Below, piece by piece: positions 8,190-62,108 of a DNA stretch of 64,000 nt (position 1 is its first letter; each line of letters starts with the position of its first letter). A program made the translations under genes and the position numbers. The notes beneath the pieces are model-generated. The model searched no databases and was not told the DNA's origin. It saw nothing but the letters and a program-made list of their open reading frames with translations. This DNA is from an uncultured Gemmatimonadales bacterium (lineage in GTDB: Bacteria > Gemmatimonadota > Gemmatimonadetes > Gemmatimonadales > GWC2-71-9), in the NCBI GenBank assembly GCA_963771275.1, contig CAVYSW010000011.1:32001-96000 (forward strand), in the 5' to 3' direction.

Positions 8190-8195
8190 GCGTCC

Positions 8196-32955: not shown

Positions 32956-33070
32956 GATCGGGAATGATCGCCACCCCCGAAATGGGCGGCAACCGCTCAC
33001 TTGACAGTCGTGCAGTCCCCCGGCGACATTCGACGAACCTCACCCGACGACCCACGGCGGAAGCACGAAT

Positions 33071-33346: not shown

Positions 33347-33372
33347 CCCTCTCGGTTCGGCAGATTGCGGGT

Positions 33373-33403
33373 GCGGCGGGCTCCTGAAGATGCCCGCCGC
33401 TTT
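33373..33403 (+). terminator. Rho-independent terminator
   Basis: GCGGCGGGC-N10-GCCCGCCGC-TTT. Confidence 0.65.
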
Positions 33404-33473
33404 GCTTGCGGGCCGTCGCCGCCCCCCGCGTGCGACGCCCGAACACGACAGGCCCGGCTAGATTCCGTCCCAC

Positions 33474-34097
33474 ATGTCCCGCCCCATCGTGATCGGCGTG
33501 GCCGGCGGATCCGCGTCGGGCAAGACGACCGTGGTGACCGAGATCGTTGGCGCCCTCGGCACCGATCGGGTCACGGTGATCGAGCACGACGCGTACTACC
33601 GCGACCGGAGTGCCGTCCCGGCAGACCGGCGGGGCGACATCAACTACGACCATCCCGACGCGCTCGAAACGGACCTCCTGATCCGGCATCTGCACGAGCT
33701 GCGGGCGGGACGGCCGGCCGCGGTGCCGGTGTACGACTTCGCAACCCACACCCGCTCCCCCCGTTCGGTGACGGCCCTGCCCCGCGGGGTGATCATCCTC
33801 GAGGGGATCCTCATCCTCGCCGAGGCGGCCCTCCGCGAGCTGATGGACATCCGGGTGTACGTGGACGCCGACGCCGATATCCGCCTGATCCGCCGGCTCG
33901 AGCGCGACCTGCACCAGCGGGGGCGCTCCCTCGAGTCGGTGGTGCACCAGTACCTCGCAACAGTGCGGCCGATGCATCTGGAGTTCGTCGAGCCGAGCAG
34001 GCGCCACGCCCATGTCATCATTCCGGAGGGGGGACGCAACCGGGTGGCGGTGGACCTGCTGCTCGCCAAAGTCCGGTCCATTCTTCGGGAGGGGTGA
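33474..34097 (+). CDS. udk: Uridine kinase
   Basis: IGVAGGSASGKTT, DAYY, NYDHPDA, EGIL, RRLERD, VRPMHLEFVEPS. Confidence 0.93.
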   Translation: MSRPIVIGVAGGSASGKTTVVTEIVGALGTDRVTVIEHDAYYRDRSAVPADRRGDINYDHPDALETDLLIRHLHELRAGRPAAVPVYDFATHTRSPRSVTALPRGVIILEGILILAEAALRELMDIRVYVDADADIRLIRRLERDLHQRGRSLESVVHQYLATVRPMHLEFVEPSRRHAHVIIPEGGRNRVAVDLLLAKVRSILREG

Positions 34098-34128
34098 TCC
34101 CGCCCGCCGGCACCGGGGGGGGGCGGAA

Positions 34129-34154
34129 TGAACAAACGGGAGGTGTCGCGCGTA
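34129..34154 (+). promoter_or_regulatory. Candidate ECF-sigma promoter
   Basis: TGAACA-N16-CGTA upstream of the Spy-like gene. Confidence 0.4.
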
Positions 34155-34203
34155 CTAGGATCAACCTCAGCACCCCACCAACCCCAACGAGGTCGACACA
34201 CCC

Positions 34204-34629
34204 ATGCGCACCACGTTTCTCGCAGTCCTGCTGTCAGCGGCGGTGAGTACGTCCGTATACGCCCAAGGCCCGGCACAGGGCCGACGGGCTCCCGCCGACC
34301 ACTGGATGACGATCGACTCCCTCGTGGCGGCCGTCGGGGTCACCGACGCCCAGAAGGCCGACGTCACGAAGCACTACGACGAGCTCAATGCGGTCATGAA
34401 GAAGGCCGCGGCCGAGCGGCAGAAGGTGATGGGCGGGATGGGCGCCGGGGAGCGCCCGTCGCAGGAGCAGATGCAGGCGTTCCGGACCACGCTCGAATCG
34501 CTGCAAACCGAGCTCGACGGCCACTACAAGGCCATTCGCGGGCTGCTCAACGCGGATCAGCAGGCCAAGTTCGACGCCCTGCCGGCCCCACGCGTCGCGA
34601 TGCGGCGCCCGCCGGGCGGCGGTAACTAG
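34204..34629 (+). CDS. Periplasmic helical Spy/CpxP-like protein
   Basis: Signal peptide; VTDAQK and LNADQQAKF (LTxxQ-like) motifs. Confidence 0.6.
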   Translation: MRTTFLAVLLSAAVSTSVYAQGPAQGRRAPADHWMTIDSLVAAVGVTDAQKADVTKHYDELNAVMKKAAAERQKVMGGMGAGERPSQEQMQAFRTTLESLQTELDGHYKAIRGLLNADQQAKFDALPAPRVAMRRPPGGGN

Positions 34630-34633
34630 GACC

Positions 34634-35584
34634 TTGCCCAGATTGTCGCGCGGGGGTGACGCCGGATTGCGGCGCCACCCCCGTTTCTCACGCCTCGCAT
34701 CGATCGGCGGCCCGGCGGTCCGACTCGGTCTGGCCACCATGCTGCTGGGGTTCGGGACACCGGTCTTCGCGCAGGCGCCGGCAACGGATATCTATCTCGC
34801 TCCGCTCTCGACGGTGGCGGGGAAGCCCGTTCTCGGCATCCCCGTCAACGTCACGCACCGCCCAGGGTATGACAACCAGCCGGCGTTTCTGCCCGACGGT
34901 TCGGGAATGCTGTACACCTCCGTGCGGGAGGACGGGCAGGCGGACATCTGGCGCTACGATCCCGCCACGGGAACCAGCAGCCGCGTCACGACGACTCCCG
35001 AGAGTGAGTACTCGCCGACGCCGCTGCCGTCCAGCCCCGGCTTCTCGGTCGTCCGGGTCGAGGCCGACTCCACGCAGCGGCTCTGGGCGTTCGCGCCGGA
35101 CGGCTCAACCCCGCGCCTGCTGCTCCCCGGCGTGAAGCCGGTCGGCTACCACGCCTGGAGCGACCGCGGCGACGTCGCGCTGTTCGTGCTCGGCTCGCCC
35201 CCCACCCTGCAGCTTGTGCCCGCCGGCGACACCGCTCCGATCGAGGTGGCGCGCGACATTGGGCGCGGGCTCCAGCGCGTCCCGGGCGAGCGGCGCATCC
35301 TGTTCGCGCAGCGCGACTCGGCGGGTTTCGTCATCACCAGCCTCAATCTCGATGACCGCGCCGTGACGGCGGTGGTGCGCGCACCGCTCAACGACTTCTT
35401 CGCGTACACGGGCGGCGCCCTGGTCGCCGCCGACAGTACCCGTCTCCTGAGGTTTCGCCCGGGCGTCGATTCTGCGTGGATCCCGGGTGACGATCTCGCC
35501 GCGCTGGGCATCCGGCGCGTGACGCGGATCGCCGTGAGCCCGCGGGGAGACTACGTGGCGTTTGTAGCGGACGACAGCCGGTAG
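34634..35584 (+). CDS. Exported TolB-like/PD40 beta-propeller protein (start may be 34739)
   Basis: PGYDNQPAFLPDG, ESEYSPTP, VGYHAW, RIAVSPRG. Confidence 0.75.
   Translation: MPRLSRGGDAGLRRHPRFSRLASIGGPAVRLGLATMLLGFGTPVFAQAPATDIYLAPLSTVAGKPVLGIPVNVTHRPGYDNQPAFLPDGSGMLYTSVREDGQADIWRYDPATGTSSRVTTTPESEYSPTPLPSSPGFSVVRVEADSTQRLWAFAPDGSTPRLLLPGVKPVGYHAWSDRGDVALFVLGSPPTLQLVPAGDTAPIEVARDIGRGLQRVPGERRILFAQRDSAGFVITSLNLDDRAVTAVVRAPLNDFFAYTGGALVAADSTRLLRFRPGVDSAWIPGDDLAALGIRRVTRIAVSPRGDYVAFVADDSR
34651..34688 (+). terminator. Rho-independent terminator-like hairpin
   Basis: CGGGGGTGACGCCG-GATTG-CGGCGCCACCCCCG-TTTCT. Confidence 0.55.
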
Positions 35585-35600
35585 CACAGTCTCGAGTAGG

Positions 35601-35662
35601 TTGTTAAGGCGCGTGGGGTTTGTTAAGCTTTCCGGCGCCCTGGCCCTCATTGTGAGCAATGA
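35601..35662. promoter_or_regulatory. Candidate operators upstream of the Ehr operon
   Basis: Direct repeat TTGTTAAG (35601, 35620) and palindrome TCATTG-TGAG-CAATGA (35647-35662). Confidence 0.45.
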
Positions 35663-35685
35663 CCCCTTCGAGCCGTCCCGCCTGA

Positions 35686-36381
35686 ATGCAGCTTACCGTC
35701 CGTCAAGCTGCGGCGTATCTCCAAGTCGACGAGTCGACCGTCCGCAGCTGGATCAGGAAGCGCGGGCTTCCCGCGCATAGCGCGAACGAACGGCTGTACC
35801 TCAACGCGGTCGAGCTGTGGCAATGGGCGACCGAAAACGGGATCACCGTCTCCAGGGGTCTGCTGGACGACGCGCGCCGCGTGCCCGAGGAGGTGCCGCC
35901 GCTTTCGACCCTGCTGCGCGCCGGGGGAGTTCACGCCGCCGTGGGTGGCGAGGACAAGGCCGGTGCGTTGCGCGAGGTCGTGATGCGATTGCCCCTGCCG
36001 CCGGACTTGGACCGGGATTTTCTCATCGGGGTATTGGAAGCCCGCGAAGCGATGGGGTCGACGGGAGTCGGTGACGGCATCGCCATCCCGCACGCCCGGA
36101 ACCCGATCGTGCTCCACGTCGCCGAGCCACTCGTGGCACTCTGCCTGTTGCGCCACCCGGTGGACTTCGACGCCGTGGACGGCGTACCGGTGCACGCGCT
36201 CTTCGTCGTCATCAGCCCAAGCGTCCCCGCCCACCTCAAGATCCTCAGCCGCCTCGGCCTGGTCCTGCGCGACGCGACGCTCCGGCAGTTGCTGCGTGAG
36301 CGTGCCGACGCCCAAGCCGTGATCGGACGAGTCCAGGAGATGGAGGTGCGTTCCACGGAGTTCTTCCGGGCGCAGCGATGA
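35686..36381 (+). CDS. Excisionase-like HTH (HTH_17) - PTS EIIA(Ntr/Fru-type) fusion protein, copy 1
   Basis: LTVRQAAAYLQVDESTVRSWIRKRGLPA; REAMGSTGVGDGIAIPH (phospho-His); ATGA overlap with the next gene. Confidence 0.88.
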   Translation: MQLTVRQAAAYLQVDESTVRSWIRKRGLPAHSANERLYLNAVELWQWATENGITVSRGLLDDARRVPEEVPPLSTLLRAGGVHAAVGGEDKAGALREVVMRLPLPPDLDRDFLIGVLEAREAMGSTGVGDGIAIPHARNPIVLHVAEPLVALCLLRHPVDFDAVDGVPVHALFVVISPSVPAHLKILSRLGLVLRDATLRQLLRERADAQAVIGRVQEMEVRSTEFFRAQR

Positions 36382-38351
36382 TCGCCGTCCTCGCCGGTCT
36401 CGCTCTGGTGCTGCTGGGCGGCGTCGCGGCCGTCGTGCTGCGGAGCCGGCCCCGCGCCGCTGCGGGGACCTACCGCGCCCTGGTCGTCGGCGGCTCCGCG
36501 GTGGCGCTCCTGCCGGCGCTGGCGGTCCTCCGAGGCACCGCCGTCCCATCGATCAACCTGCCGGCGCAGCTGCCCGGCGGGAGCTGGGTGATGGGGCTCG
36601 ATGCCCTGTCCGCCTGGTTCCTGGTGTGCATCCTCGGAGTGGGCGCCGTTGCCGCCGCGTTCGGGACGTGGTATCTGGCCGGCGAGCGCGACCACGGCGG
36701 CGTGCCCCAGGCGCAGGTCGGGTTCGCCGTGCTGCTCGTGGCGCTGTCCCTCGTCGTCACCGCCCGGGCCGCCCTGTTCTTCCTCGCCGCGTGGGAGCTG
36801 ATGGCGCTGGCGGGCTACTTCCTCGTGGTGTTCGACGATCGGCGCGCGGAGGTGCGTCGCGCAGGGCTCGTCTATCTAGTCGCCACGCACACGGGCACCC
36901 TGCTGCTGTTCGTGGTATTCGGCCTCTGGAGCCTGCACGCCCCCGACTTCACCTTCGCGTCCCTGGCCGCGACCGCACGGCCACTCGGCTCCATGCGCCC
37001 GCTGCTGCTGGGCATTGGGCTGGTCGCGTTCGGCTTGAAGGCCGGGTTCGTCCCGCTGCATTTCTGGCTGCCGGAAGCCCACGCGGGGGCCCCGTCGCAC
37101 GTGTCGGCGATCATGTCCGGCGTGGTCATCAAGATGGGCATCTACGGCGTGCTGCGCATGGTGACCATGCTGGGTACGCCGCCGGCGTGGTGGGGCTGGT
37201 CGGTGTTGGCGCTCGGTACCGTGTCCGGGATATTGGGCGTGCTCTGGGCCCTGGCGCAGCACGACCTGAAGCGCCTGCTCGCGTATCACAGCGTCGAGAA
37301 CATCGGGATCATCCTGATGGGGATCGGGGCGGGGGCCCTCGGCCTGGCATATCGCGTCCCGCTGCTTGCGGCCCTCGGGTTCCTCGGCGCGATGCTGCAC
37401 ACGCTCAACCACGCGCTGTTCAAGAGCCTGTTGTTCCTCGGGGCCGGATCCATTCTCCGGGCAACGGGCACCCGCGACCTCGAGCGGCTCGGCGGCCTCG
37501 CGCGGCGCATGCCATTCACCTGGATCGCGTTTCTCGTGGGCGCCGTCGCGATCGTCGGTCTGCCGCCACTCAATGGCTTCGTGAGTGAATGGGTCGTCTT
37601 CCAGGCGCTGTTCGGCGCCGGCCACAGCGGCACCCCGGCGGCGCTGGCCGCATTCGGCTCCGCCGCACTCGGTCTGATTGGTGGCCTCGCGCTGGCGTGC
37701 TTCGCGAAAGTGTGCGGCACCGTCTTCCTCGGGCAGCCACGCTCGGCGGCCGCGGCCGGCGCGGCGGAGTGTTCGTCGGGATCCTGGGTGCCCATGCTGG
37801 CTTTGGCGCTGGCCTGCGTCGTGATCGGTGTGCTCCCGTGGATGGTGCTGCCACCCGCCGTGCGCGTCGCGGGCCTGGTCGCCGGGATGCCGCCCGGCGA
37901 CGCCGCCACGCTGACGGCGGGGACGCTGGACGGCGCGCGCCGCATCACCACCATCGCAGCGGTGCTGGCGGGCCTCGTCGGCGCCGCGGCTCTGGTGCGG
38001 GCGGTCGCCCTGCGACGGACGGGGACGGCGGTGAGCGAGACCTGGGCCTGCGGCTACGCGGCGCCCACCGCCCGCATGCAGTACTCCGCTTCCTCCTTCG
38101 CGGCGCCGCTGGTGGGCCTGTTCGGGTCGCTCGGTGGCGTCGCAGTCCACCACACGGCAAGCCACTTCTCCACCCACCCGGCCAACGTCATGCTCGACCG
38201 CGTGCTGGCCCCGGTGTGGCGCGGCCTGCGCCAAGCGGGCGGACGGCTGCGGCCGATACAGCAGGGCCGCCTGCAGCTCTACCTGCTGTACATCGTCGCC
38301 ACCGTCAGTGCGCTGCTGGTCTACCTGGTCGCCTCCGGAGGTGGCCCGTGA
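36378..38351 (+). CDS. hyfB: Ehr/Hyf antiporter-like membrane subunit (HyfB-like)
   Basis: AWELM, KAGFVPLHFWLPEAH, KMGIYG, KRLLAYHSVENIG, NHALFK, PPLNGFVSEW, TWACGY. Confidence 0.9.
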   Translation: MIAVLAGLALVLLGGVAAVVLRSRPRAAAGTYRALVVGGSAVALLPALAVLRGTAVPSINLPAQLPGGSWVMGLDALSAWFLVCILGVGAVAAAFGTWYLAGERDHGGVPQAQVGFAVLLVALSLVVTARAALFFLAAWELMALAGYFLVVFDDRRAEVRRAGLVYLVATHTGTLLLFVVFGLWSLHAPDFTFASLAATARPLGSMRPLLLGIGLVAFGLKAGFVPLHFWLPEAHAGAPSHVSAIMSGVVIKMGIYGVLRMVTMLGTPPAWWGWSVLALGTVSGILGVLWALAQHDLKRLLAYHSVENIGIILMGIGAGALGLAYRVPLLAALGFLGAMLHTLNHALFKSLLFLGAGSILRATGTRDLERLGGLARRMPFTWIAFLVGAVAIVGLPPLNGFVSEWVVFQALFGAGHSGTPAALAAFGSAALGLIGGLALACFAKVCGTVFLGQPRSAAAAGAAECSSGSWVPMLALALACVVIGVLPWMVLPPAVRVAGLVAGMPPGDAATLTAGTLDGARRITTIAAVLAGLVGAAALVRAVALRRTGTAVSETWACGYAAPTARMQYSASSFAAPLVGLFGSLGGVAVHHTASHFSTHPANVMLDRVLAPVWRGLRQAGGRLRPIQQGRLQLYLLYIVATVSALLVYLVASGGGP

Positions 38352-39268
38352 CCGCCAGCGCCTGGCTGACGCTCGGCTGCGCGCTCGTCCTGGCGCCGGC
38401 GCTCCCGGGCGTCGCCACTCGGACCAGGAACCTGCTCACGGCGCGCCGGGGGGCCCCCGTGCTGCAGCTCTACCGCGACCTGGTGAAGCTCTGGCGCAAG
38501 GGCGCGGTGTACAGCCCCATCACGACGTGGGCCTTCCGCGCCGGCCCCATGATCCTGTTCGCCACGACCGTGCTGGCGGTCGGCCTGCTGCCGCTCGACG
38601 GGCGCTCGGCCCCGCTCACGTTCGCCGGCGATTTCGTCGCGCTCGCCGCCCTTCTGGCGCTCGGCCGGTTTGCCCTCGTGCTCGCCGCCCTCGACACGGG
38701 GTCGAGCTTCGAGGGAATGGGAGCGAGCCGCGAGGGGACATTCGGCAGTCTCACCGAGCCCGCGCTCTTCCTGTGCTTCGCCGCGCTGGCGATCGGCACC
38801 CGCCAGGACTCGCTGGCCGGAATGCTCGGTGCCGCGCTTGGGCCCGTCTGGAGCATCGCGGGACCGGGACTCGCGATGGTCGCCGGCAGTCTGTTCCTGC
38901 TCACGCTCGCCGAGGCCGGTCGCGTACCGCTGGACGATCCGGCCACCCATCTCGAGCTCACCATGATCCACGAGGTCATGGTGCTCGATCACAGCGGGCC
39001 CGACCTTGCCCTCGTGCAGTATGCGGGGGCACTCAAGCTGACGCTGTTCGGCAGCATGCTCACGGCGGTGCTGATCCCCAGGGCGACGCTTCCCCCCGCG
39101 CTGGCCATCGCGGCGTGGGTCGCGGGGCTCCTCGTCGTCGCCGCCGCCGTGGGCGTGGTCGAGGCCACGATGGCGCGCCTGCGGCTCACGCGCGTGCCCC
39201 AGCTGTTGGTGGCCGCCGCGGTCCTGCCCGCGCTCGCCATGCTCCTGCTCTTCGGCACCGCGCGATGA
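38348..39268 (+). CDS. hyfC: Ehr/Hyf membrane subunit (HyfC/NuoH-like)
   Basis: GAPVLQLYRDLVKL, SSFEGMGASRE, EAGRVPLDDPATHLELTMIHEVMVLDHSG. Confidence 0.9.
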   Translation: MTASAWLTLGCALVLAPALPGVATRTRNLLTARRGAPVLQLYRDLVKLWRKGAVYSPITTWAFRAGPMILFATTVLAVGLLPLDGRSAPLTFAGDFVALAALLALGRFALVLAALDTGSSFEGMGASREGTFGSLTEPALFLCFAALAIGTRQDSLAGMLGAALGPVWSIAGPGLAMVAGSLFLLTLAEAGRVPLDDPATHLELTMIHEVMVLDHSGPDLALVQYAGALKLTLFGSMLTAVLIPRATLPPALAIAAWVAGLLVVAAAVGVVEATMARLRLTRVPQLLVAAAVLPALAMLLLFGTAR

Positions 39269-39906
39269 CCGCGCTCGCCTCGCTGCTGCTGATCACCGTG
39301 GTGCTCACGGATTTCGCCATCCTGGCGACCAGCCGGCTCAGCACCTGCATCCGGGCCATCGGCGTCCAGGGACTGCTCCTGGCCGCGCTGCCGCTCGCGC
39401 TGCACTCGGCGTGGTCCGTCCACGTGGCCGCCCTGGCACTCGGCACCGCCGTCGTGAAAGCGGTGGTGCTGCCCTGGTTCCTCACCTGGGCGATTCGCGA
39501 AGCCAACGTCCGGCGGGAGGTCGAACCGCTCATCGGCTTCGCCACCTCGGTGCTGCTGGGCACCGTGACCGTGGCGGCCGCGTTCCTGGTCGCCCCCAGG
39601 CTCCCGCTCCCGGATCGCGACGGCACCCTCCTGGTCGCCGTCGCCCTGTCGAACGTGCTGACCGGGCTCATCGTGCTCACCTCGCGCCTCAAGGCCATCA
39701 CCCAGGTCGTGGGCTATCTCATGCTCGAGAACGGCATCTTCGTGTTCGGCCTCACGCAGACCGAGCGCGTGCCGTTCCTGCTGGAGCTGGGCGTGCTGCT
39801 GGACGTCTTCGTGGGCGTCTTCATCATGGGCATCGTCGTGTTTCACATCAATCGCGAGTTCGACTCGCTCAGCTCCACCGAGCTCGAGGAGCTGAAGGAC
39901 GCATGA
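39265..39906 (+). CDS. hyfE: Ehr/Hyf membrane subunit (HyfE-like)
   Basis: QVVGYLMLENGIF, ELGVLLDVFV; ATGA overlaps on both sides. Confidence 0.88.
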   Translation: MTALASLLLITVVLTDFAILATSRLSTCIRAIGVQGLLLAALPLALHSAWSVHVAALALGTAVVKAVVLPWFLTWAIREANVRREVEPLIGFATSVLLGTVTVAAAFLVAPRLPLPDRDGTLLVAVALSNVLTGLIVLTSRLKAITQVVGYLMLENGIFVFGLTQTERVPFLLELGVLLDVFVGVFIMGIVVFHINREFDSLSSTELEELKDA

Positions 39907-41339
39907 TACTCCCCGCCCTCGTCGTCGTGCCCGCCTTGGGAGCCGTGGGTGCCTACGTCCATCGGGCGACGGTGTTTCGCACGGGGTGGCTCGTGGGGAC
40001 CGCCGTCGTGCACGCGGGGCTCGTGGCCGCCGCGTGGGCCACGCGCCCCGGCCCGGTCCTGGCTGGCTGGTTCGCGCTCGATGACCTGGGCCTCCTGGTC
40101 CTGACGGTCGTCAGCGCGCTGTTCCTCGCGACGGCCCTGTACGCGGTGGGATACCTCCGCCACGAGAACGTCCGGGGTGGCCCGGCGTTCGTCAGTTGCC
40201 TCCTCGCCTTCCTCGCTGCGGCCTCCCTGGTGACCATCAGCCACCATCTGGGCATTCTGTGGGTCGGGATGGAGGCCACCACGCTGGCCGTGGCCCCGCT
40301 GATCTACCATCGCCACGACCGCCGCTCGCTCGAAGCCGTCTGGAAGTACCTCGTGCTGTCGTCGGTCGGCATCGCGCTGGCCCTGCTCGGGACGTTCTTC
40401 CTGGCGACGGCTCAGGTCGCCACCGCCACGTCGGGTCGACCGCTGCTGGTGGCAGACCTCGTGCGCGGTGCCCGGCAGCTGCATCCCGCGTGGCTCAAGG
40501 CGGCCTTCGTCTTCCTGCTCGCGGGCTACGGCACCAAGATGGGCCTGGCGCCGTTGCACACCTGGAAGCCCGACACGTACGGCGAAGCCCCCAGTCTGGT
40601 CGGCGCGCTCATGGCCGGTGGCCTCACCAGTCTCGCCTTCCTGGGCATTGCCCGCGTCATGCAAGTGGTGGCGGCGGCCGGACTGACGTCGTTCGCGCAA
40701 CCCGTGCTCATCGCGTTCGGCCTGTTGTCGCTGGTGGTCGCCGCCGCGTTCGTCCTCAGCCAAACCGACCTCAAGCGTCTGCTGGCCTACTCCAGCGTCG
40801 AGCACATGGGGTTGCTCGTGCTGGGCCTGGGGATCGGGGGCGCCGGCGTCTACGGCAGTGCGCTGCACCTGATGAACAACGCTTTGGCCAAGGGGCTGCT
40901 CTTCCTCGCCGTCGGCAACGTGGTGCTCGTCACGGGCACGTCGTCGGGCGGCGCGATCCGGGGGCTGGGCCGTACGCTGCCGATCTCGGCGTCCCTGCTG
41001 CTCGTCGGGCTGTTCGCCGCCACCGGCTCGCCACCGTTCGGGCCGTTTCTCAGCGAGTTCATCATCCTGCGGGCGGCGATGGCGGGCGGGCACCCGATCC
41101 TGGCGCTCGTCGTGGTGGCCCTGCTGGTGGTGATCTTCGCCGGCATGGCCCTGAGCACGCTGCGGGTCGTGCACGGAGAGCCGGCGCCGGCAACGCGCCG
41201 CGGGCCCGAGAGCGCCTGGCTGGTGACCGGACCGGTCGCCCTCGCGGTGGGCCTGCTGCTCCTGGGGTTCTATCTCCCCACGCCATTGGGCCGCGTGCTG
41301 CAGCACGCCGCGGCGGCGCTGGGTGGCGGGGCGCCGTGA
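39903..41339 (+). CDS. hyfF: Ehr/Hyf antiporter-like membrane subunit (HyfF-like)
   Basis: WVGMEATTL, SLEAVWKY, GYGTKMGLAPLHTWKPD, KRLLAYSSVEHMG, PPFGPFLSEF. Confidence 0.9.
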   Translation: MILPALVVVPALGAVGAYVHRATVFRTGWLVGTAVVHAGLVAAAWATRPGPVLAGWFALDDLGLLVLTVVSALFLATALYAVGYLRHENVRGGPAFVSCLLAFLAAASLVTISHHLGILWVGMEATTLAVAPLIYHRHDRRSLEAVWKYLVLSSVGIALALLGTFFLATAQVATATSGRPLLVADLVRGARQLHPAWLKAAFVFLLAGYGTKMGLAPLHTWKPDTYGEAPSLVGALMAGGLTSLAFLGIARVMQVVAAAGLTSFAQPVLIAFGLLSLVVAAAFVLSQTDLKRLLAYSSVEHMGLLVLGLGIGGAGVYGSALHLMNNALAKGLLFLAVGNVVLVTGTSSGGAIRGLGRTLPISASLLLVGLFAATGSPPFGPFLSEFIILRAAMAGGHPILALVVVALLVVIFAGMALSTLRVVHGEPAPATRRGPESAWLVTGPVALAVGLLLLGFYLPTPLGRVLQHAAAALGGGAP

Positions 41340-42847
41340 CGGATCTCTACGGGGCCGGTCTGCGCAACCGCCGCGCGATCCCGTTCGGCGCCGTGCCGAT
41401 CGAGCCAGCCGAGCGCTTTCAGGTCACCGTCGGCGAGGCGCAGGCCGAAGGCGGACGCCTCGTGTCGCTGTTTGGCCTTCCGCACGACGCCGACCAGGTC
41501 CGGCTGGTGGCCATCGTGGCCGACGACGCCGCCGGCCGGTTGGGCGTCACGTCGGCGATCGTGGGTCGGGCCTACCCCGCCCTGACCCCGCTCTGCCCGC
41601 AGGCCGAGCGGTTCGAGCGGGAGATCTGGGAACAATGCGGGGTGGTGCCGGAACGGCATCCCGCTCTCAAGCCGGTTCGGCGCCACCCGCCGGATCATGC
41701 CCCGGCAGCCTGGGCCCTGAGCCCACCCGACCGGGAGGCCTATCCGTTCGACCGCCTCGACGGCGAGGAGGTGCACGAGGTCGCCGTCGGCCCGGTACAC
41801 GCCGGGATTATCGAGCCGGGACATTTCCGGTTCCAGGCACACGGCGAGCGGGTCCTCCAGCTGGAGATCGTGCTGGGTTACCAGCACCGGGGCGTGGAGC
41901 GCCTGCTCGAGACGGCGGAGCGGGCGCGGGCCGTCCTCGTGGCGGAGTCCGTCGCCGGCGACACGGTGGTGGGACACGCGGATGCCCACTGCGGGGCGTT
42001 GGAAGCGTTGGCCCGGTGTCGCAAGACCCCGCGCGCCCAGACCATCCGGGGGATCGCGCTGGAGCTCGAGCGCCTCGCAAACCATCTCGGGGACCTCGGC
42101 GCACTGGCCGGCGACATCGCCTATCAGCCGGGCGCCGCCTATTTCGGCCGGCTGCGCGGCGAATGCCTCAACCTCTTGATGGCGCTGTCGGGGAATCGCT
42201 ACGGCCGCGGCCTGCTCCGCCCGGGCGGCGTGACGTTCGACCTCACACCGGGCCTGGTGGACGAGCTGCGCGACCGGCTGATCCAGCTATCGGAGCGGGC
42301 GCGACCGGTCGCGCGGATGATGCTCTCCGACGCCTCCGTGCAGGCGCGGCTCGAGGGCGTGGGGGTGGTGGACCGATTGCTGGCGGAGCGGCAGGGCCTC
42401 GTGGGACCGGTCGCGCGCGCGTGCGAGGTCCCGCGCGACGTACGACACGACCACCCATGGGGCGTGTTTCGCTTCGCGCACATCCCCGTGTCCACCTCCT
42501 GGGCCGGCGACGTGTTCGCGCGGGCCTACGTCCGATGGCTCGAAGTCCAACGCTCACTGGAGTTCCTCGGGGACCAGCTCGGCAGCATTCCCAAGAGCGC
42601 CCCGCGCGTCCCGGTGGCCGGCCTGCGGCCGGACGAGATCGCGGTCGCGTTGGTGGAGGGCTGGCGGGGGGAGATCGCGCACGTGGTCATCACGGATGAC
42701 CGGGGCGGCATTCGCCGCTACAAGGTGACGGATCCGTCGTTCCGCAATTGGCCCGCGCTCGCCGCCGCCATGGCGGGCAACGAGATGTCCGACTTTCCGC
42801 TGTGCAACAAGAGCTTCAATCTGTCCTACGCGGGGCACGACCTGTGA
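41336..42847 (+). CDS. hyfG: Ehr large subunit (NuoC-NuoD/HyfG-like) lacking NiFe-ligating CxxC motifs
   Basis: EREIWE, VGPVHAGIIEPGHFRF, GYQHRGVE, AESVAGDT (in place of RxCGxC), EGWRGE, DFPLCNKSFNLSYAGHDL (in place of DPCxxC). Confidence 0.9.
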   Translation: MTDLYGAGLRNRRAIPFGAVPIEPAERFQVTVGEAQAEGGRLVSLFGLPHDADQVRLVAIVADDAAGRLGVTSAIVGRAYPALTPLCPQAERFEREIWEQCGVVPERHPALKPVRRHPPDHAPAAWALSPPDREAYPFDRLDGEEVHEVAVGPVHAGIIEPGHFRFQAHGERVLQLEIVLGYQHRGVERLLETAERARAVLVAESVAGDTVVGHADAHCGALEALARCRKTPRAQTIRGIALELERLANHLGDLGALAGDIAYQPGAAYFGRLRGECLNLLMALSGNRYGRGLLRPGGVTFDLTPGLVDELRDRLIQLSERARPVARMMLSDASVQARLEGVGVVDRLLAERQGLVGPVARACEVPRDVRHDHPWGVFRFAHIPVSTSWAGDVFARAYVRWLEVQRSLEFLGDQLGSIPKSAPRVPVAGLRPDEIAVALVEGWRGEIAHVVITDDRGGIRRYKVTDPSFRNWPALAAAMAGNEMSDFPLCNKSFNLSYAGHDL

Positions 42848-42856
42848 GGCCGACGG

Positions 42857-43630
42857 ATGCTTGAGCTGCTGCGAACCCGCCTGGCCCAGGGCACCGCCAC
42901 CTCGCCGTTCCCGAACGGCCCGACGGTATTCCCGGAGCGATTTCGGGGACGGCCGACGCTCGATGTCGCCCGCTGCCCAAGCGGCTGCCGCGACTGTGCG
43001 GCGCGCGCCCCCTCGGGCCTGATCACCGTTGGCCCCGACGGCGCCGCACGACTCGATGTCGGCGCCTGCCTGTTCGCTCCGGAAGAGGCCGAGGCGTGTC
43101 CGCATGGCGCCATACGGTTCACCGGGGACTTCGCCATGGGAGCGCGCTCGCGGGACGATCTGGTCACGGAGACCGGCGCGCTTCGTCTGGCGCGGCAGCT
43201 CGACGGGGCGGCGCGCCGGCTGTTCGGCCGCTCGCTGCGGCTGCGCTCGGTGGCGGCCGGCAGCTGCAACGGCTGCGAGGCGGAGCTCGTGGCCCTCGGG
43301 AACGTGGTGTTCGACATGGCCCGGTTCGGCGTCCAGTTCGTGGCCTCACCGCGGCACGCCGACGGCATCGTGCTGACCGGCGCGGTGAGCCGCAACATGC
43401 ATGAGGCGCTGCGCAAGACGTACGAGGCGACGCCCGCGCCCAAGCTGGTGATCGCCGTCGGCGCGTGCGCCATCAACGGCGGCCCGTTCCGGGGAAGCGC
43501 GGAAGTGCTGAATGGGGCCCCCCCCGAGCTCCCGGTGGATCTCTGGATTCCGGGCTGCCCGCCCCATCCGCTCACTACGCTGGATGCGCTGCTGCGACTG
43601 CTCGGCCGCCTGGACGGCGGCCAACGCTAG
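42857..43630 (+). CDS. hyfI: Ehr small subunit: degenerate ferredoxin-like N-terminus fused to NuoB/HyfI-like Fe-S domain
   Basis: GSCNGCEAE, ASPRHADG, GACAINGG, PGCPPHP; N-terminal CPSGCRDCAARAP and CLFAPEEAEACP. Confidence 0.88.
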   Translation: MLELLRTRLAQGTATSPFPNGPTVFPERFRGRPTLDVARCPSGCRDCAARAPSGLITVGPDGAARLDVGACLFAPEEAEACPHGAIRFTGDFAMGARSRDDLVTETGALRLARQLDGAARRLFGRSLRLRSVAAGSCNGCEAELVALGNVVFDMARFGVQFVASPRHADGIVLTGAVSRNMHEALRKTYEATPAPKLVIAVGACAINGGPFRGSAEVLNGAPPELPVDLWIPGCPPHPLTTLDALLRLLGRLDGGQR

Positions 43631-43636
43631 GGGCTG

Positions 43637-44122
43637 CTACACGCCGGCCAGCCGCGCCAGCTCCTCCTGCAGCGCCTCCAGAACCGTGTCCTTCTCCCGC
43701 AGGGCTTTCCGCTGCTCGGCCAGGCTGTGCTCCGCGGCCGCAACGGCCCGACGCAGGACGTGCACCGCATCCACCTCATGCGCCACCTGGCGACGCAGGC
43801 GTCGCGCACGATCCTCGGTACTTTGAAGCCAGCGCCGCGCGGCTGCGACGCGAAGGGCAGCCTCATCAGCTGCGCGTTGCGCCCCGTGCTTCCGCTCCGT
43901 CCACGCCGCCCGCTCGTCACGTAGCCGATCGAGCGTCCGCTGGAGGGCCGACGATGGAGCGCGGCCCTGGGACTCCTCCCATGCGCGTCGCAGTTCGGCT
44001 TCCACGTTCCGAGCGGCACGCGCGGCCGTGGCCGCTTGGTCGAATGCCGTTCGCAGCACGGCTTCGGCTGCGTCGAGTTCCGCGTGATACTGCCCGAGCA
44101 ACGACGTCGCATGCCCAGGCAT
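43637..44122 (-). CDS. Hypothetical coiled-coil protein
   Basis: A/E/R/L-rich helical sequence downstream of EIIA copy 2 on the same strand; start uncertain (44122 or 44182). Confidence 0.5.
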   Translation of the reverse strand: MPGHATSLLGQYHAELDAAEAVLRTAFDQAATAARAARNVEAELRRAWEESQGRAPSSALQRTLDRLRDERAAWTERKHGAQRAADEAALRVAAARRWLQSTEDRARRLRRQVAHEVDAVHVLRRAVAAAEHSLAEQRKALREKDTVLEALQEELARLAGV

Positions 44123-44206
44123 GGAGACCGGGATTGCCGGCGCGTCGCCCTCGCACCGACTCCTCGCGATGCCGCTTGACACAGTCGTACCGCAGTCCTG
44201 GGGAGT

Positions 44207-44923
44207 CTAGGCGCTGGCAGCCGGCCGCGCTTCGCTGAGTCTGCGCTCGGCCGCCACCAGGACGTCGTACATCGCCTCCGGGCTGGGTGCCGTGAGTAGA
44301 TCCGCCGCGGCTTCGGGGCTTGCGAGCATGCGCGCGAGCTTGGTCAGCCAGGGGAGGTGTAGCTCCTGATAGCGCAGGCCGAGCACGAAGAACAGGTGGG
44401 TAGGCATCCCATCCAGCGCGTGAAAGTCCACCCCAGCGCGCGATCGACCGAGCACCATGAACGGGCGCAGCACCTGATCGGGGTGCCGATACAGAGTGTG
44501 CAGGAAGGCAATCCCGTTGCCGATCGCCGTCGGCATGATGTTCTCACGCTCTACGAGCGCCCCGACGAACCAACGTTTGTCCCGAATCAGCCCGAGCTTG
44601 GCGGCATGGTCCGCCAGTTCTTCGATGACCGCCGTCTTCGTCGTGCCCGCGAGCTCCGGCGCGACGTGCTTCGGCTCGAAGCAGCTTTCCAACCCGAGGA
44701 GCATCGGGACCGCATCAGGCGCGCGAGGCACCTCCACGTAGCGTCGGCTGATCCCGAGCATCTGGTCGTCCAGCCACGCATCAATCATGGCCTTCCGGAA
44801 CCGCCATTGGTTACCCACCCGCACGGCTGGCAGCGGCCCCTGCGCGGCGAGCTTCAGCACGGTTCGCTCGTTCAGCTTGAGGTACGCCGCGAGTTCTCGG
44901 ACCGTCATCAGGCGATCATCCAT
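44207..44923 (-). CDS. Excisionase-like HTH (HTH_17) - PTS EIIA fusion protein, copy 2
   Basis: RBS GGAGG; MTVRELAAYLKLNERTVLKLAAQGPLPAVRVGNQWRF; RENIMPTAIGNGIAFLH; GVDFHALDG. Confidence 0.88.
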   Translation of the reverse strand: MDDRLMTVRELAAYLKLNERTVLKLAAQGPLPAVRVGNQWRFRKAMIDAWLDDQMLGISRRYVEVPRAPDAVPMLLGLESCFEPKHVAPELAGTTKTAVIEELADHAAKLGLIRDKRWFVGALVERENIMPTAIGNGIAFLHTLYRHPDQVLRPFMVLGRSRAGVDFHALDGMPTHLFFVLGLRYQELHLPWLTKLARMLASPEAAADLLTAPSPEAMYDVLVAAERRLSEARPAASA

Positions 44924-44987
44924 TGTCCTCCCCGAGACCTCCCGCTGGTGGCGCCGAGCCCGGCGAATGACCGACCGGGGCTGATTC

Positions 44988-45015
44988 TTGACACGCAGAC
45001 ACACCAATATATACT
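44988..45015 (+). promoter_or_regulatory. Near-consensus sigma70 promoter
   Basis: TTGACA (44988)-N16-TATACT (45010) at the edge of a 32%-GC tract (45001-45100, hand count). Confidence 0.65.
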
Positions 45016-45042
45016 TCAAAATATCCAAAAGTACATAGTAAT

Positions 45043-45072
45043 ACTGTAATTGACTGTGATATTCTGTAGTAG
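45043..45072. promoter_or_regulatory. Three helically phased direct repeats (CTGT core, 10-bp period)
   Basis: ACTGTAATTG ACTGTGATAT TCTGTAGTAG. Confidence 0.5.
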
Positions 45073-45110
45073 TACTAGGCACTTCCATATATTACGCCAC
45101 TGGAGGTAAC

Positions 45111-45288
45111 ATGTCATCCCAGAACCAGCAACCGCTCCTCGAAGACCCCACAGCCGCCCCCAAAGCCGGGGCAGCCCCCCAAGCCAGGTCAGCCTCCGAA
45201 GCCGAGTCAGCCTCCGAAGCCGGGAGCTCCGGGTACCGGTCCGACTGGACCCAAGCCGGGGCCGGCCCAGTCCCCCGCCAAGCCGTAG
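45111..45288 (+). CDS. Proline-rich micro-protein (~58 aa) with QPPKPG repeats; needs a +1 shift near 45135
   Basis: RBS GGAGGT then ATG 45111; 18-nt repeats vary mostly at synonymous positions only in the +1 frame (QPPPKPG QPPKPG QPPKPS QPPKPG), stop TAG 45286-45288. Confidence 0.55.
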
Positions 45289-45373
45289 GAGTCGTTGACT
45301 TTGGTCCCTCACGGACGCCTCCAGCCACCACACGTCGCGTCGATCGCGCGAGATCTCGGCCCAGGGGGCGCGT

Positions 45374-46051
45374 GTGAGTAGGCCACAGGCAGCGCGTTGC
45401 GACGAACCGCGCAGAACCGCGGCTGGCGCTCCAGGCCATGCGACCCTCAGCCAGGCCGATCTCTGGGACCGGCTGGGGGCCGCATACGTCGAGCTCTGGC
45501 GGCAGCGTGAGACGACCGCAGCTGACCCCATGGCGATGGCCGTGGCTGGGCATGTTCGCCTCGCGATGACGCAAGGCGAACCGACTCCTGGCGGCCCTGG
45601 GGACGAAATCGACGACTCCCGGCCGGTGGACCCGAGGGTTCAGGAGTGGGCCGTTCGGGCAGGCTGCCTGCTCGCGAGCGACGGGGCGCCGGCGAAGCCC
45701 GTGCGGTTTGACCGGCTTCGCGCCCGGCTCGTGGCGCACGGGTTCAATCGGGCGGAGGCCTGGGATCTGTGTGTCGCCCTTCGTCGGGCCGGCGTGATCC
45801 ACAGCGAGCCCGACCGCCCCTATCTCAATGGCCCGGGCCAGCGTCTTGCGGACCGGCTACTGTCCACCACCGGGCTGCGAGCGCGATCGGCCGAGGATCT
45901 CGAGGCTGGGCTGATGATCGCCGGCGAGACGCGTCTCGCCTCCATTGCGCCCGGCCGGCGCCTCGATGCCGAGGTGCTCACAGAGGCGTGCCGGCAGCTG
46001 GGAAGAGCCATCGCACTCGGTCACCGGGCATCAGCGCGGCCGGGGGACTGA
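45374..46051 (+). CDS. Hypothetical protein
   Basis: 225-aa ORF filling the gap; no recognised motif; overlaps the end of the convergent gene by 31 bp. Confidence 0.45.
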   Translation: MSRPQAARCDEPRRTAAGAPGHATLSQADLWDRLGAAYVELWRQRETTAADPMAMAVAGHVRLAMTQGEPTPGGPGDEIDDSRPVDPRVQEWAVRAGCLLASDGAPAKPVRFDRLRARLVAHGFNRAEAWDLCVALRRAGVIHSEPDRPYLNGPGQRLADRLLSTTGLRARSAEDLEAGLMIAGETRLASIAPGRRLDAEVLTEACRQLGRAIALGHRASARPGD

Positions 46052-47199
46052 TCTCCCCGTTTCTCCCTGTCCGTCCCCGGCCCCAACACCTCCCCCAGCG
46101 CCTCCAGCAGCCTATCGACCACCAGCGGCGTCGCGTTGGTGCCCATCAGCCCAACGCGCCAGACCTTACCCTTGAGCGCGCCGAAGCCCCCGCCGATCTC
46201 GATGCCGCGCTCGAGCAGCGCTTTGCGCACGGCGAGGTCGTCCACCCCGTTGGGGACGCGGACCACGTTGAGCATCGGCAGCCGGTGAGCGGCGGGGGTG
46301 AACAGCGAGATGCCGAGCCGCTCGAGACCGCGCACCAGTCGCTCGTGCGCCGCCCGGTGGCGGGCGAAGCGCGCCGCGAGCCCCTCCGCCAAGATCAGCC
46401 GCAGCGCCTCGTGGAAGCCGTAGATGTTGGCGACCGGCGCCGTGTGATGGAACGCCCGCGCGCGCGGCCCCCCCTGGTCACCCCAGTACTGGAACAGCAG
46501 CTGGAGATCGAAGTACCACGTCGCGGCCGGCGTCTTGCGCCGCGCGATCGCGGCCATGGCGCGCGGCCCAAGTGTCACGGGGCCCAGTCCCGGCGGCGCG
46601 CCGAGGCATTTCTGGGAGCAGGAGCCGGCGGCATCGATCAGCCAGGCATCGGTCTCGACCGGCATGCCCCCCAGCGAGGTGACGCAGTCCACCATGAAGA
46701 GCGCGTCGTGCGCCCGCACCATCCGGCCGATGGCCTCGAGTGGCTGCGCGGCACCGGTGGAGGTTTCCGCATGCACCAGCGCCACCAGCTTCGGGCGCCC
46801 GCGCGTGAGCTCGTCCGCGATCCGCTCGGGCGCGATCACCTCGCCGTACGGCGCGTCGATCCGGCGCACCCGGGCGCCCGCGCGTTCGGCCAGCTCCACC
46901 AGGCGCTGGCCGAAATAGCCGATCACGCCGACGATCACCTCGTCTCCCGGCTCGACGAGGTTGAACATGATCGCTTCGAGCCCGGCGGTGCCGGTGCCGG
47001 ACATCGGGATGGTGTGATGATTGGTCGTCCCGAACACGGTCCGGAGATCGGCCATGGTTTCGTCCATGACCGTGAGGAAGTACGGATCGAGGTGGCCGAC
47101 CAGCGGTGCCGCCATCGCGGCGCTCACCACGGGATCGGGGTTCGACGGTCCGGGACCGAGCAGGAGGCGGTCCGGGGGACTGAGTACATTACGGGACAT
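46021..47199 (-). CDS. Alanine-glyoxylate / serine-pyruvate aminotransferase (class V)
   Basis: LLLGPGPS, SGTGTAGLEA, HAETSTG, DCVTSLGG, SQKCLGAPPG, WRVGLMG. Confidence 0.92.
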   Translation of the reverse strand: MSRNVLSPPDRLLLGPGPSNPDPVVSAAMAAPLVGHLDPYFLTVMDETMADLRTVFGTTNHHTIPMSGTGTAGLEAIMFNLVEPGDEVIVGVIGYFGQRLVELAERAGARVRRIDAPYGEVIAPERIADELTRGRPKLVALVHAETSTGAAQPLEAIGRMVRAHDALFMVDCVTSLGGMPVETDAWLIDAAGSCSQKCLGAPPGLGPVTLGPRAMAAIARRKTPAATWYFDLQLLFQYWGDQGGPRARAFHHTAPVANIYGFHEALRLILAEGLAARFARHRAAHERLVRGLERLGISLFTPAAHRLPMLNVVRVPNGVDDLAVRKALLERGIEIGGGFGALKGKVWRVGLMGTNATPLVVDRLLEALGEVLGPGTDREKRGDQSPGRADAR

Positions 47200-47290
47200 G
47201 GCGCGGTTCCCTGTTTTCGGTACGCGAGTACCAAAGGTACCGGGTTACCGCGCCGCTGAGCGACCCCAGCTATCGCAACCGGAGCGAGCC

Positions 47291-47800
47291 ATGCCGATGG
47301 TCTCCCTCACGGCGCTGCCCGACACGGCGCGCCTGTGGATCTTCGCCGCCGAGCGTGCGCTGTCGCTGGCCGAGCGGCAAGCCCTGCTCGCCGACGTCGA
47401 CGGCTTCCTCATGGCGTGGACGGCGCACGGCGTGCCGCTCACCTGCGGTCGCGACTGGCGGCACGAGCGGTTCCTCCTCGTCGCCGTCGACGAGGCCGCG
47501 GCCGGGGTCTCCGGCTGCTCGATCGACGCGCTCACGCGGAAGCTCCGCGAGCACGAGAAGACCCTCGGGCTCGCGCTGCTCGACAACGGGCCGGTGCTCT
47601 ACCGCGAGGGGAACGGGATCGCCCGCGTGCCACGCGGCCGGTTCCGCGCGCTGGCTGAAGTGGGCGCGGTCTCACCCGACACCGTGGTGTTCGACAACAC
47701 GGTGCAGTCGCTCGGCGCCCTGCGTGCCGGCCGGTGGGAGACCGTCGCCCGCGGCAGCTGGCACGGCCGGGCCTTCTTCGGCGAGGCGAGCGGGCGCTAG
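47291..47800 (+). CDS. Conserved hypothetical protein (WxAHG / SGCSID motifs)
   Basis: LPDTARLWIFAA, WTAHG, VDE...SGCSID, VFDNTV, SWH. Confidence 0.7.
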   Translation: MPMVSLTALPDTARLWIFAAERALSLAERQALLADVDGFLMAWTAHGVPLTCGRDWRHERFLLVAVDEAAAGVSGCSIDALTRKLREHEKTLGLALLDNGPVLYREGNGIARVPRGRFRALAEVGAVSPDTVVFDNTVQSLGALRAGRWETVARGSWHGRAFFGEASGR

Positions 47801-47871
47801 CCCCCGGGGATGCTGGCGCCGGGCATTTCCGGTGGCTAGTTTGGCGTTCGGTTCCCTCCTGGACTTGAGCC

Positions 47872-62100: not shown

Positions 62101-62108
62101 CCGGCTCG

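Follow-up and report, generated by a model that had tools for sequence, protein, structure and literature searches.

The window analysed here, a stretch of 64,000 nucleotides from an uncultured Gemmatimonadales bacterium (contig CAVYSW010000011.1), has a G+C content of approximately 70% and carries an operon of seven plus-strand genes, recognized by third-codon-position composition and by inspection of start codons: EIIA-1, whose product combines a helix-turn-helix (HTH) domain with an EIIA domain of the phosphotransferase system (PTS), and six genes for an Ehr complex. Close protein relatives carry Gemmatimonadales or Gemmatimonadota labels. Ehr complexes, which are related to complex I and to group 4 hydrogenases, occur widely, and passages of PMC6349859, PMC10284858 and PMC7894505 call their function unknown. 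In the 80 ehr loci compared in this work the HTH-EIIA gene is, besides the six structural genes, the only one to accompany this Ehr family from phylum to phylum, and the signal that phosphorylates or activates a protein of the EIIA-1 type would tell when cells need Ehr.

The ehr operon and its products

EIIA-1 (35686-36381, plus strand, 231 amino acids), assigned by its HTH_17 and PTS_EIIA_2 matches, is the first gene of the operon, and its stop codon overlaps the ATG of the following gene by four bases (ATGA, 36378-36381), which bears out the translational coupling to the six-gene operon that had been proposed in an initial annotation of this DNA. The six structural genes, all on the plus strand and assigned, like EIIA-1, with Pfam and NCBIfam, encode a NuoL/HyfB-like antiporter-type membrane subunit (EhrA-like; 36378-38351, 657 amino acids, Proton_antipo_M E 1.2e-52), a NuoH/HyfC-like membrane subunit (EhrB-like; 38348-39268, 306 amino acids, NADHdh E 1e-24), a HyfE-like membrane subunit (EhrC-like; 39265-39906, 213 amino acids, NCBIfam hydrogenase 4 membrane subunit, E 8.5e-23, below cut-off), a NuoN/M/HyfF-like antiporter-type subunit (EhrD-like; 39903-41339, 478 amino acids, Proton_antipo_M E 1.9e-46), a large subunit (EhrL-like, NuoC-NuoD/HycE-like; 41336-42847, 503 amino acids) and a small subunit in which a HyfH/NuoI-like ferredoxin domain is fused to a NuoB/HyfI-like domain (EhrS-like; 42857-43630, 257 amino acids, Oxidored_q6 E 1e-28). 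Junctions between structural genes are four-base overlaps at 38348 (GTGA, between the NuoL-like and NuoH-like genes), 39265, 39903 and 41336, and a nine-base gap precedes the small-subunit gene at 42857. A terminator scan of positions 35000-46500 found none, versus 3.8 expected from shuffles, and an Rfam scan of positions 33000-48000 at E <= 1 returned zero matches.

Among solved structures, the closest to the large subunit are E. coli formate hydrogenlyase/hydrogenase 4 (Hyc/Hyf; 7z0s) and Pyrococcus MBH (6cfw). The subunit aligns with E. coli HycE (7z0s_E, E 1.3e-47) and Pyrococcus MbhL (6cfw_L, E 1.2e-37) but has lost all four Ni-Fe cysteines: the CGIC of HycE is replaced by AGDT, and DPCYSC by NLSYAG. 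A search of 1.84 billion representative proteins yielded 813 relatives of this subunit at E <= 1e-30, and when 50 full-length relatives from the top of these were aligned with the window protein, the consensus at the ligand sites read AGDS and FPLCNKSFNLSYCGxDL, so that the loss of the Ni-Fe ligands is a family trait. Passages of PMC6349859 and PMC10284858 define Ehr by a group 4 [NiFe]-hydrogenase-like large subunit without both CxxC Ni-Fe motifs, and the name is also applied in the Geobacter papers PMC7894505 and PMC13194489. The window complex fits this definition, since the CxxC motifs are absent from its group-4-like large subunit, and the operon unites matches to Proton_antipo_M (twice), NADHdh, Complex1_49kDa/30kDa and Oxidored_q6. 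Four of the membrane and peripheral subunits find their top NCBIfam hits in Hyf B, E, F and H, with all scores below the respective cut-offs: the NuoL-like subunit reaches 549 bits with hydrogenase 4 subunit B (cut-off 667), the HyfF-like subunit matches the hydrogenase 4 subunit F models, and residues 1-109 of the small subunit match NuoI/HyfH models.

A total of 61 open reading frames (ORFs) of the window, a non-exhaustive set picked by composition, were scanned with Pfam, and none matched Hyp, formate dehydrogenase, PTS EI, HPr, EIIB or EIIC; the initial annotation had likewise seen no hyp, formate dehydrogenase or sugar permease genes nearby. HyfA/R-type genes were not seen among these ORFs either. 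With neither the cysteine ligands nor Hyp proteins in this set, the operon does not have the features of a functional group 4 [NiFe]-hydrogenase, and by its Hyf/Ech-like subunit set and missing Ni-Fe ligands the complex is an Ehr, as the initial annotation had suggested, and not a hydrogenase.

In an alignment of 65 small subunits, each of the four NuoB-type cysteines is kept in 59-61 sequences and each of the eight ferredoxin-type cysteines in 56-64. The window protein retains four of four NuoB-type cysteines and five of the eight ferredoxin-type ones, with Ala51, Ala74 and Glu77 at the other three positions, replacements that are common to two, two and six other sequences, respectively; because these three positions are replaced, one of the two ferredoxin-type [4Fe-4S] clusters has probably been lost in this Gemmatimonadota lineage. 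The NuoL-like subunit retains the invariant Glu, Lys and His positions, and in complex I such residues are typical of antiporter-like proton channels. Since antiporter-type subunits are combined with an Fe-S small subunit and no Ni-Fe site, the complex is most likely a redox-driven ion translocator.

Kinship with the Ehr of Geobacter sulfurreducens is seen through six Geobacterales loci (L019, L027, L028, L042, L053 and L056 in the locus set described below), which display 46-50% large-subunit identity and a shared gene order. The Geobacter Ehr has the same NuoL-, HyfC-, HyfE- and HyfF-like, large and small subunits and no Ni-Fe site, and L019, L027, L042 and L053, with large subunits about 50% identical to that of the window, carry an HTH-EIIA gene before a NuoL-like gene. 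Geobacter differs in that its ehrA is present twice and ehrA-2 lies with the EIIA gene at a distance, whereas the window has one NuoL-like gene within one uninterrupted operon. The window small subunit also lacks three of the eight ferredoxin-type cysteines kept in the family.

EIIA-1 and its PtsN-like domain

EIIA-1 consists of an HTH_17 domain (residues 3-51; 37.5 bits) and an EIIA(Ntr)-like domain (residues ~75-215; PTS_EIIA_2, PF00359, 74.3 bits), both scores exceeding the Pfam cut-off of 27. His136 lies within the motif GIAIPH, and the histidine of G-[IV]-A-x-P-H is taken here to be the phosphorylation site; together with a second active-site histidine, His183, it gives the protein the features expected of a PF00359 member. 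His136 and His183 are invariant among 43 aligned type-1 proteins, in which HTH residues such as Trp22, Pro29 and Trp47 are near-invariant; of these 43 proteins, 42 match HTH_17 and 41 match PTS_EIIA_2. When second-type copies (see below) are included, the phospho-acceptor histidine is present in 49 of 49 HTH-EIIA sequences, a count that leaves out three fragments or mis-called ORFs (L012, L057 and L067).

The AlphaFold model of EIIA-1 (pLDDT 92.8, pTM 0.72) has a PtsN-like fold, and its best matches in the PDB are the PtsN/EIIA-Ntr structures 3urr, 4gqx, 1a6j and 2a0j, with TM values of 0.76-0.82 on the target and 29-31% identity. The domain thus shares with PtsN its fold, the GIAIPH motif and the second histidine, and differs in its N-terminal HTH_17 domain, in an equivalog score below cut-off and in its location in an ehr operon; the gene for PtsN lies beside rpoN. 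By the NCBI curated cut-off, EIIA-1 does not count as a PtsN orthologue.

An HTH-EIIA gene at ehr operons of eleven phyla

Loci were gathered by an alignment search with the large subunit in one genome per species, the best 80 of at least 597 stretches being kept with up to 10 kb per side, and the window proteins were mapped to all ORFs of these loci by phmmer. The 5' side of the operon is readable in 56 of the 80 loci, being cut by a contig end in the other 24, and an EIIA-1-type gene lies at the operon in 45 of the 56. These represent 11 named phyla, namely Gemmatimonadota, Planctomycetota, Verrucomicrobiota, Spirochaetota, Acidobacteriota, Omnitrophota, Thermodesulfobacteriota, Bacteroidota, Ignavibacteriota, Actinomycetota and Fibrobacterota. 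The guess in the initial annotation that one EIIA beside ehr may be common has therefore held, and because orthologues are found at so many readable loci and in so many phyla, the upstream HTH-EIIA gene is linked to Ehr beyond mere position. A profile of all HTH-EIIA sequences, searched against all ORFs of the 80 loci, recovered no extra copy (50 hits in 46 loci). In a large-subunit tree of 78 rows, made by a quick method and leaving out L021, L030 and L051 (split match), the EIIA-positive loci are scattered across the entire tree, and the pattern of presence and absence needs at least eight changes. When the flanking ORFs were clustered all against all, the widest spread of any other family was 14 of the 80 loci; this largest cluster is heterogeneous, its one scanned member being a sigma-54 response regulator, and no electron-donor module is conserved among these ORFs.

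The EIIA-1-type gene is part of a same-strand gene chain in 41 of the 45 loci, the four others comprising a fragment (L012), two divergent pairs of EIIA and NuoL-like genes (L019 and L053) and one such pair followed by a 0.8-kb gap (L027). Next to come is a NuoL-like gene in 42 of 45, the large-subunit gene in L031 and L057, and the NuoH-like gene in L066; in L044, L049, L052, L068, L072 and L078 (five Verrucomicrobiota and one Opitutia) the EIIA gene lies between two NuoL-like genes. Junctions with the next gene were scored from whichever in-frame start codon was closest to the EIIA stop, which favours short distances, and 41 of 45 fall between -11 and +7, including 22 four-base and five one-base overlaps.

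Two NuoL-like genes, compared with one in the window, occur in many ehr operons (L010, L014, L027, L034, L042, L050, L071, L076, L077 and those of the Verrucomicrobiota type), and some apparent duplicates (e.g. L014 and L034) are one gene split by a frame break.

Direct repeats upstream of EIIA-1

Two exact copies of TTGTTAAG (35601-35608 and 35620-35627, plus strand), 19 bases apart from start to start, lie 58-85 bases before the start of EIIA-1 and are the sole matches in 64 kb on either strand, where 0.05 would be expected from shuffles. When one mismatch was allowed, merely two more, distant sites appeared, which is no more than chance. A single TGTTAAG is found 12 bases before the EIIA-1 start in L005 and 21 bases before it in L019. 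Other phyla carry direct repeats of the form (A/T)TGTC(C/T)A, in two to four copies spaced by 10-11 bases between -70 and -19, and several of these arrays come after a TTGACA-like hexamer. Pairs of TGTC with a spacing of 10 or 11 bases, sought in the 150 bases upstream of the gene, are present in 10 of 36 regions, whereas 1000 control sets, made of 150-base windows taken at random from the same sources, averaged 0.105 of 36 and never exceeded 2. Both types of repeat are candidate operators, and the TTGTTAAG pair may serve as an operator and/or a promoter element.

A regulator or a subunit of the complex?

In the reading preferred here, which is given roughly an even chance, EIIA-1 is the operon's own autoregulated, PTS-responsive one-component regulator; its phosphorylation, its DNA binding and the sign of the regulation are parts that we infer, whereas the gene order and overlaps, the lost Ni-Fe ligands, the co-occurrence across phyla, the invariant histidine, the fold and the enrichment of the repeats are observed. 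In its favour stand the conservation of the gene and its range of phyla, the lack of any other neighbour of comparable spread, the invariant histidines, the retained domains, the PtsN-like fold, the upstream repeats and the proteomic data from G. sulfurreducens given below. EIIA-1 is a small cytoplasmic protein in which an excisionase/MerR-type HTH is joined to a PtsN-like EIIA domain, and the HTH would bind short direct repeats in the promoter, TTGTTAAG twice here and TGTCCA-like sequences phased by 10-11 bases elsewhere. The EIIA domain would be phosphorylated on His136 by the HPr/NPr of a regulatory PTS, and the expression of Ehr would then track the phosphoenolpyruvate-dependent phosphorylation state of the cell. 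Autoregulation is proposed because EIIA-1 is the first gene of the operon. DNA-binding proteins of the MtlR, LicR and ManR type are set by phosphorylation of an EIIA-like domain of the mannitol/fructose class; EIIA-1 shares with them the idea of a DNA-binding protein with an EIIA-like domain, and differs in that no PRD, Mga or EIIB-like domain was detected in it and in that its target would be a respiratory-type complex, not a sugar operon.

The corresponding gene pair is found in G. sulfurreducens, where, according to passages of PMC7894505, GSU0734 is ehrA-2, GSU0739 is ehrA-1, the genes from ehrA-1 to ehrS are GSU0739-45, and the annotation of GSU0735 names an HTH of the MerR family and a PTSIIA domain. 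Supplement files 2 and 3 of the same paper list GSU0735, PtsI and HprK as detected by proteomics; as PtsI and HprK are expressed and the same gene pair is present, a PTS phosphorylation chain is available in this organism, which is genetically tractable and expresses GSU0735 beside ehrA-2. No paper was found on a link between Ehr and EIIA or the PTS, on GSU0735/GSU0738 or on the HTH_17-EIIA architecture, in a search that did not extend to older subscription literature, including the original description of Ehr. The gene itself is already known from the annotation of GSU0735, and what appears to be new, although an earlier mention is possible, is the proposed PTS-type regulator dedicated to a machine of the complex I family.

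A number of observations weigh against EIIA-1 as a PTS-responsive regulator. The gene is absent despite at least 700 bases of upstream sequence in 11 of the 56 readable loci (L028, L038, L040, L045, L056, L058, L064, L065, L071, L073 and L077), which include one Riflebacteria-type clade and one Holophagaceae clade; Pfam scans of picked upstream ORFs in ten of these eleven found unrelated proteins, with no family match in L040, L071 and L077. The two Geobacterales absences may be false, because the EIIA and NuoL-like pair can sit apart from the main operon there. In eight loci the EIIA gene is not the first gene, being preceded by a NuoL-like gene in six, located between the NuoL-like and NuoH-like genes in L066 and placed after another EIIA in L001, and none of the eight regions in which it is internal or behind another EIIA has phased TGTC pairs. 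The phased repeats are confined to 10 of 36 regions, some of which belong to close relatives (L013/L024/L021 and L009/L023), their controls were random windows rather than matched intergenic DNA, and the TTGTTAAG pair could instead constitute the -35 and -10 regions of a promoter. As for the PTS itself, ptsI, ptsH and hprK were not found among the 61 scanned ORFs of the window, and EIIA-1 scores below the cut-offs of the PtsN equivalog models TIGR01419 and NF008145 (65.2 vs 138.7 bits and 53.7 vs 221, respectively). The 22 four-base overlaps would fit a subunit too. Finally, in a column headed iBAQ of the proteomic tables (PMC7894505), GSU0735 stands at 6.68, EhrL at 7.28 and EhrS at 6.31, so that the protein is not low as expected of a typical repressor.

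In three loci (L012, L038 and L065) the structural genes are fragmented across frames, as pseudogenes or by assembly frameshifts; L038 and L065 were counted among the EIIA-negative loci.

In another view, EIIA-1 would act mainly after translation, as a phosphorylation-dependent subunit or gate docked on Ehr, most plausibly on the NuoL-like subunit, with DNA binding also possible; this is judged unlikely. Precedents are at hand, EIIA-Ntr binding components of Trk and Kdp, and EIIA-Glc binding permeases. Docking would suit a gene whose immediate downstream neighbour is NuoL-like in 42 of 45 loci, with 27 of 45 junctions being four- or one-base overlaps, its place between two NuoL-like genes in the six Verrucomicrobiota-type loci and the divergent units that the pair forms on its own in L019 and L053. 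It would also suit G. sulfurreducens, in which GSU0735 sits with ehrA-2, away from GSU0739-45, and has an iBAQ value similar in magnitude to the EhrL and EhrS values (passages of PMC7894505). However, a pure subunit would hardly be expected to retain HTH_17, as 42 of 43 orthologues do; a place beside the first structural gene is trivial if EIIA simply heads the operon; and adjacency to a NuoL-like gene is not strict, the gene of L031 and L057 preceding the large subunit with no NuoL-like gene adjacent. Moreover, in the tables of PMC7894505 for Ac/Hy, Fo/Ac and Fo/Hy, GSU0735, represented by three peptides, shows no significant change in any of the three comparisons, whereas the authors of that paper report the Ehr subunits GSU0739-45 to be more abundant on formate. 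A complex prediction for the NuoL-like subunit and EIIA-1 scored 0.00 in both runs, which weighs neither for nor against binding.

A wider proposal, held to be distinctly improbable, would combine both roles: EIIA-1 would also be a phospho-switchable subunit on the NuoL-like EhrA, allowing the PTS to throttle the ion pump directly, with second HTH-EIIA paralogues recruited per lineage for tuning and a SulP-type neighbour of some ehr operons (see below) pointing to the energised process. If EIIA-1 does dock on EhrA, a machine of the complex I family would for the first time be seen under PTS control.

The EIIA domain could, alternatively, be a phosphorylation-independent sensor or interaction domain, EIIA-1 being in that case a conventional regulator of its operon, responsive to a metabolite or a partner protein and without a link to the PTS. 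The PtsN equivalog score far below cut-off, a Pfam match limited to profile positions 43-138, the lack of any PTS gene among the scanned window ORFs and the existence of EIIA-like folds without phosphotransfer, such as the cytoplasmic domains of anion exchangers that are among the fold hits, are all in keeping with this suggestion. It is nonetheless rather doubtful, in view of a phospho-acceptor histidine conserved in 49 of 49 sequences and a second active-site histidine in 43 of 43, across 11 phyla, of closest folds that are genuine PtsN proteins, and of a G. sulfurreducens that possesses the same gene pair and expresses PtsI and HprK (PMC7894505, supplement files). The rest of the probability, apart from a small share that falls to a two-EIIA module (next section), is left for readings that have not been thought of.

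Genes beside the operon

The 3' end of the operon is met by two minus-strand genes, as the initial annotation had described: a coiled-coil ORF (43637-44182, 181 amino acids, or 161 from Met21), whose stop codon (43637) is convergent with that of the operon (43630) at a distance of six bases, and EIIA-2 (44207-44923, minus strand, 238 amino acids), whose stop lies 24 bases from the coiled-coil ORF. A spacer rich in AT (44985-45110), each strand of which offers a sigma-70-like site (TTGACA-16-TATACT at 44988-45015, plus; ATGACA-17-TAATAT at 45117-45089, minus), separates EIIA-2 from two plus-strand ORFs, one of 88 amino acids (45111-45377), preceded by a GGAGGT ribosome-binding site, and one of 225 amino acids (45374-46051), which overlaps the former at GTGA.

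EIIA-2 is an HTH_17-EIIA protein (HTH_17 57.7 bits, PTS_EIIA_2 91.7 bits, cut-off 27) that is 30% identical to EIIA-1 over 200 residues and scores below the cut-offs of the PtsN equivalog models (53.2 and 35.2 bits). Both proteins keep the phospho-acceptor histidine that had been noted earlier, within GIAIPH in EIIA-1 and within GIAFLH, the proline of the motif being replaced by leucine, in EIIA-2. A search for relatives of EIIA-2 gave 978 hits, of which the best 120 are 63-94% identical to it, and the source names include Gemmatimonadota, Planctomycetota, Krumholzibacteria and Poribacteria; the idea of a decayed copy of EIIA-1 was rejected, since EIIA-2 has a conserved family of its own. Its start is most likely at 44923, because the longer ORF has its first 55 codons in the AT-rich spacer and its HTH from residue 60 onward, and because homologues measure 236-239 amino acids; the alternative start at 45088 (293 amino acids) was rejected.

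No orthologue of EIIA-2 occurs in the 80 ehr loci, among them 13 labelled Planctomycetota (with EIIA-1 present, or absent with a readable 5' side) and five Gemmatimonadota with 2.5-9.2 kb of downstream sequence. A second HTH-EIIA gene is found in five loci, directly before EIIA-1 in L001, directly after the small subunit in L004 and L051, between the HyfF-like and large subunits in L052 and 7 kb away in L023. All five are 28-35% identical to EIIA-2, and they form at least two further groups, with mutual identities of 51-59% for L001/L004/L051 and 38-40% for L023/L052. These identities indicate that a second HTH-EIIA gene has joined ehr operons repeatedly, but that the partner that recurs is not the EIIA-2 of the window. 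In L004 and L051, what lies downstream of the second EIIA is unrelated to the coiled-coil ORF; in L004 two short genes directly past the second EIIA (7464-8282), which by eye are CrcB-like and of the DUF190 type, resemble a fluoride-resistance pair.

The coiled-coil ORF has four homologues, at 77-98% identity, no Pfam family and no match in the 80 loci. An ORF at 43627-44112 on the minus strand was rejected as a gene, since it is Arg-rich, out-of-frame text and the homologues match the coiled-coil frame; membership of the coiled-coil and zinc-ribbon family of other loci was rejected for want of a Pfam match and of Cys pairs. The 88- and 225-residue ORFs have no Pfam or NCBIfam match and no match in the 80 loci. 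The former is of low complexity; the nearest Atlas clusters of the latter are a phage-type amino-acid:DNA transferase and thymine pyrophosphorylase (DNA hypermodification; score 0.92), which is a weak lead. Positions 44985-46051 may represent a small foreign insert, the G+C content of the 44001-46000 bin being 66.8%.

The initial annotation had proposed a PTS-controlled energy module, possibly acting via an EIIA-1/EIIA-2 pair, with the orphan genes of 43637-46051 as accessory parts, and had called for a count of EIIA genes per ehr operon. That count did bring to light a recurrent, non-orthologous second HTH-EIIA gene, attached to ehr in L001, L004, L051 and L052, but it found EIIA-2 at none of the 80 loci; the flanking genes are present as described, with the start of EIIA-2 corrected and the orphans resolved into the coiled-coil ORF and the 88- and 225-residue ORFs, but neither EIIA-2 nor these ORFs are co-conserved with ehr in the 80 loci, an outcome that the annotation itself had named as refuting, so that their role as accessory parts is not upheld. 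Such a module is highly improbable, given second copies that are only 28-35% identical to EIIA-2, as against 63-94% within the EIIA-2 family across phyla, an AT-rich promoter region belonging to EIIA-2 itself and a coiled-coil ORF with four close homologues, despite the closeness of the genes, the second copies at other loci and a hint that both types may share contigs in some Gemmatimonadota, an EIIA-1 relative and an EIIA-2 relative having longest contigs of equal length in two cases (P0096 and P0314, 15,372 bases; P0062 and P0279, 225,371 bases). EIIA-2, the coiled-coil ORF and the ORFs of 45111-46051 look like neighbours with their own promoters, outside the Ehr module, and the bracketing of the operon by two regulators appears to be mostly a coincidence.

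Further observations at ehr loci and in the window

A cluster of SulP-type anion transporters is represented in seven loci (L041:2567-4366, L043:2330-4237, L044:36-1766, L072:12107-14020, L076:9991-11952, L006:2242-3915 on the minus strand and L031:10383-12371), adjoining ehr in six of them, from four phyla, and lying 7 kb off in one; the identity was checked with Pfam (Sulfate_transp and STAS) on the L043 member only. This neighbour may hint at what is energised by Ehr. A small protein of the Zn_ribbon_9 type, checked on the L021 member only, is encoded in six loci, before the first NuoL-like gene in four from Verrucomicrobiota (L052:562-1385, L068:1161-1655, L072:2022-2417 and L078:1886-2290), after the small subunit in L021 (12391-12855), and in L059 (12348-12848). 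A second, more distant Hyf-like set of six genes adjoins ehr in L053 (13383-20554) and L059 (2355-9956), with a large-subunit match at E ~1e-81.

A gene for a 91-residue 4Fe-4S ferredoxin (33071-33346) lies on the same strand as the window operon, 2.3 kb upstream of it, and homologues of this gene were not found beside ehr in the 80 loci. Further away, positions 17195-25143 encode a bacterial alpha-2-macroglobulin (1893 amino acids) followed by a PBP1C-type penicillin-binding protein, which is a classic gene pair, and positions 61470-63824 encode a large multihaem cytochrome c with MtrC/MtrF-like domains.

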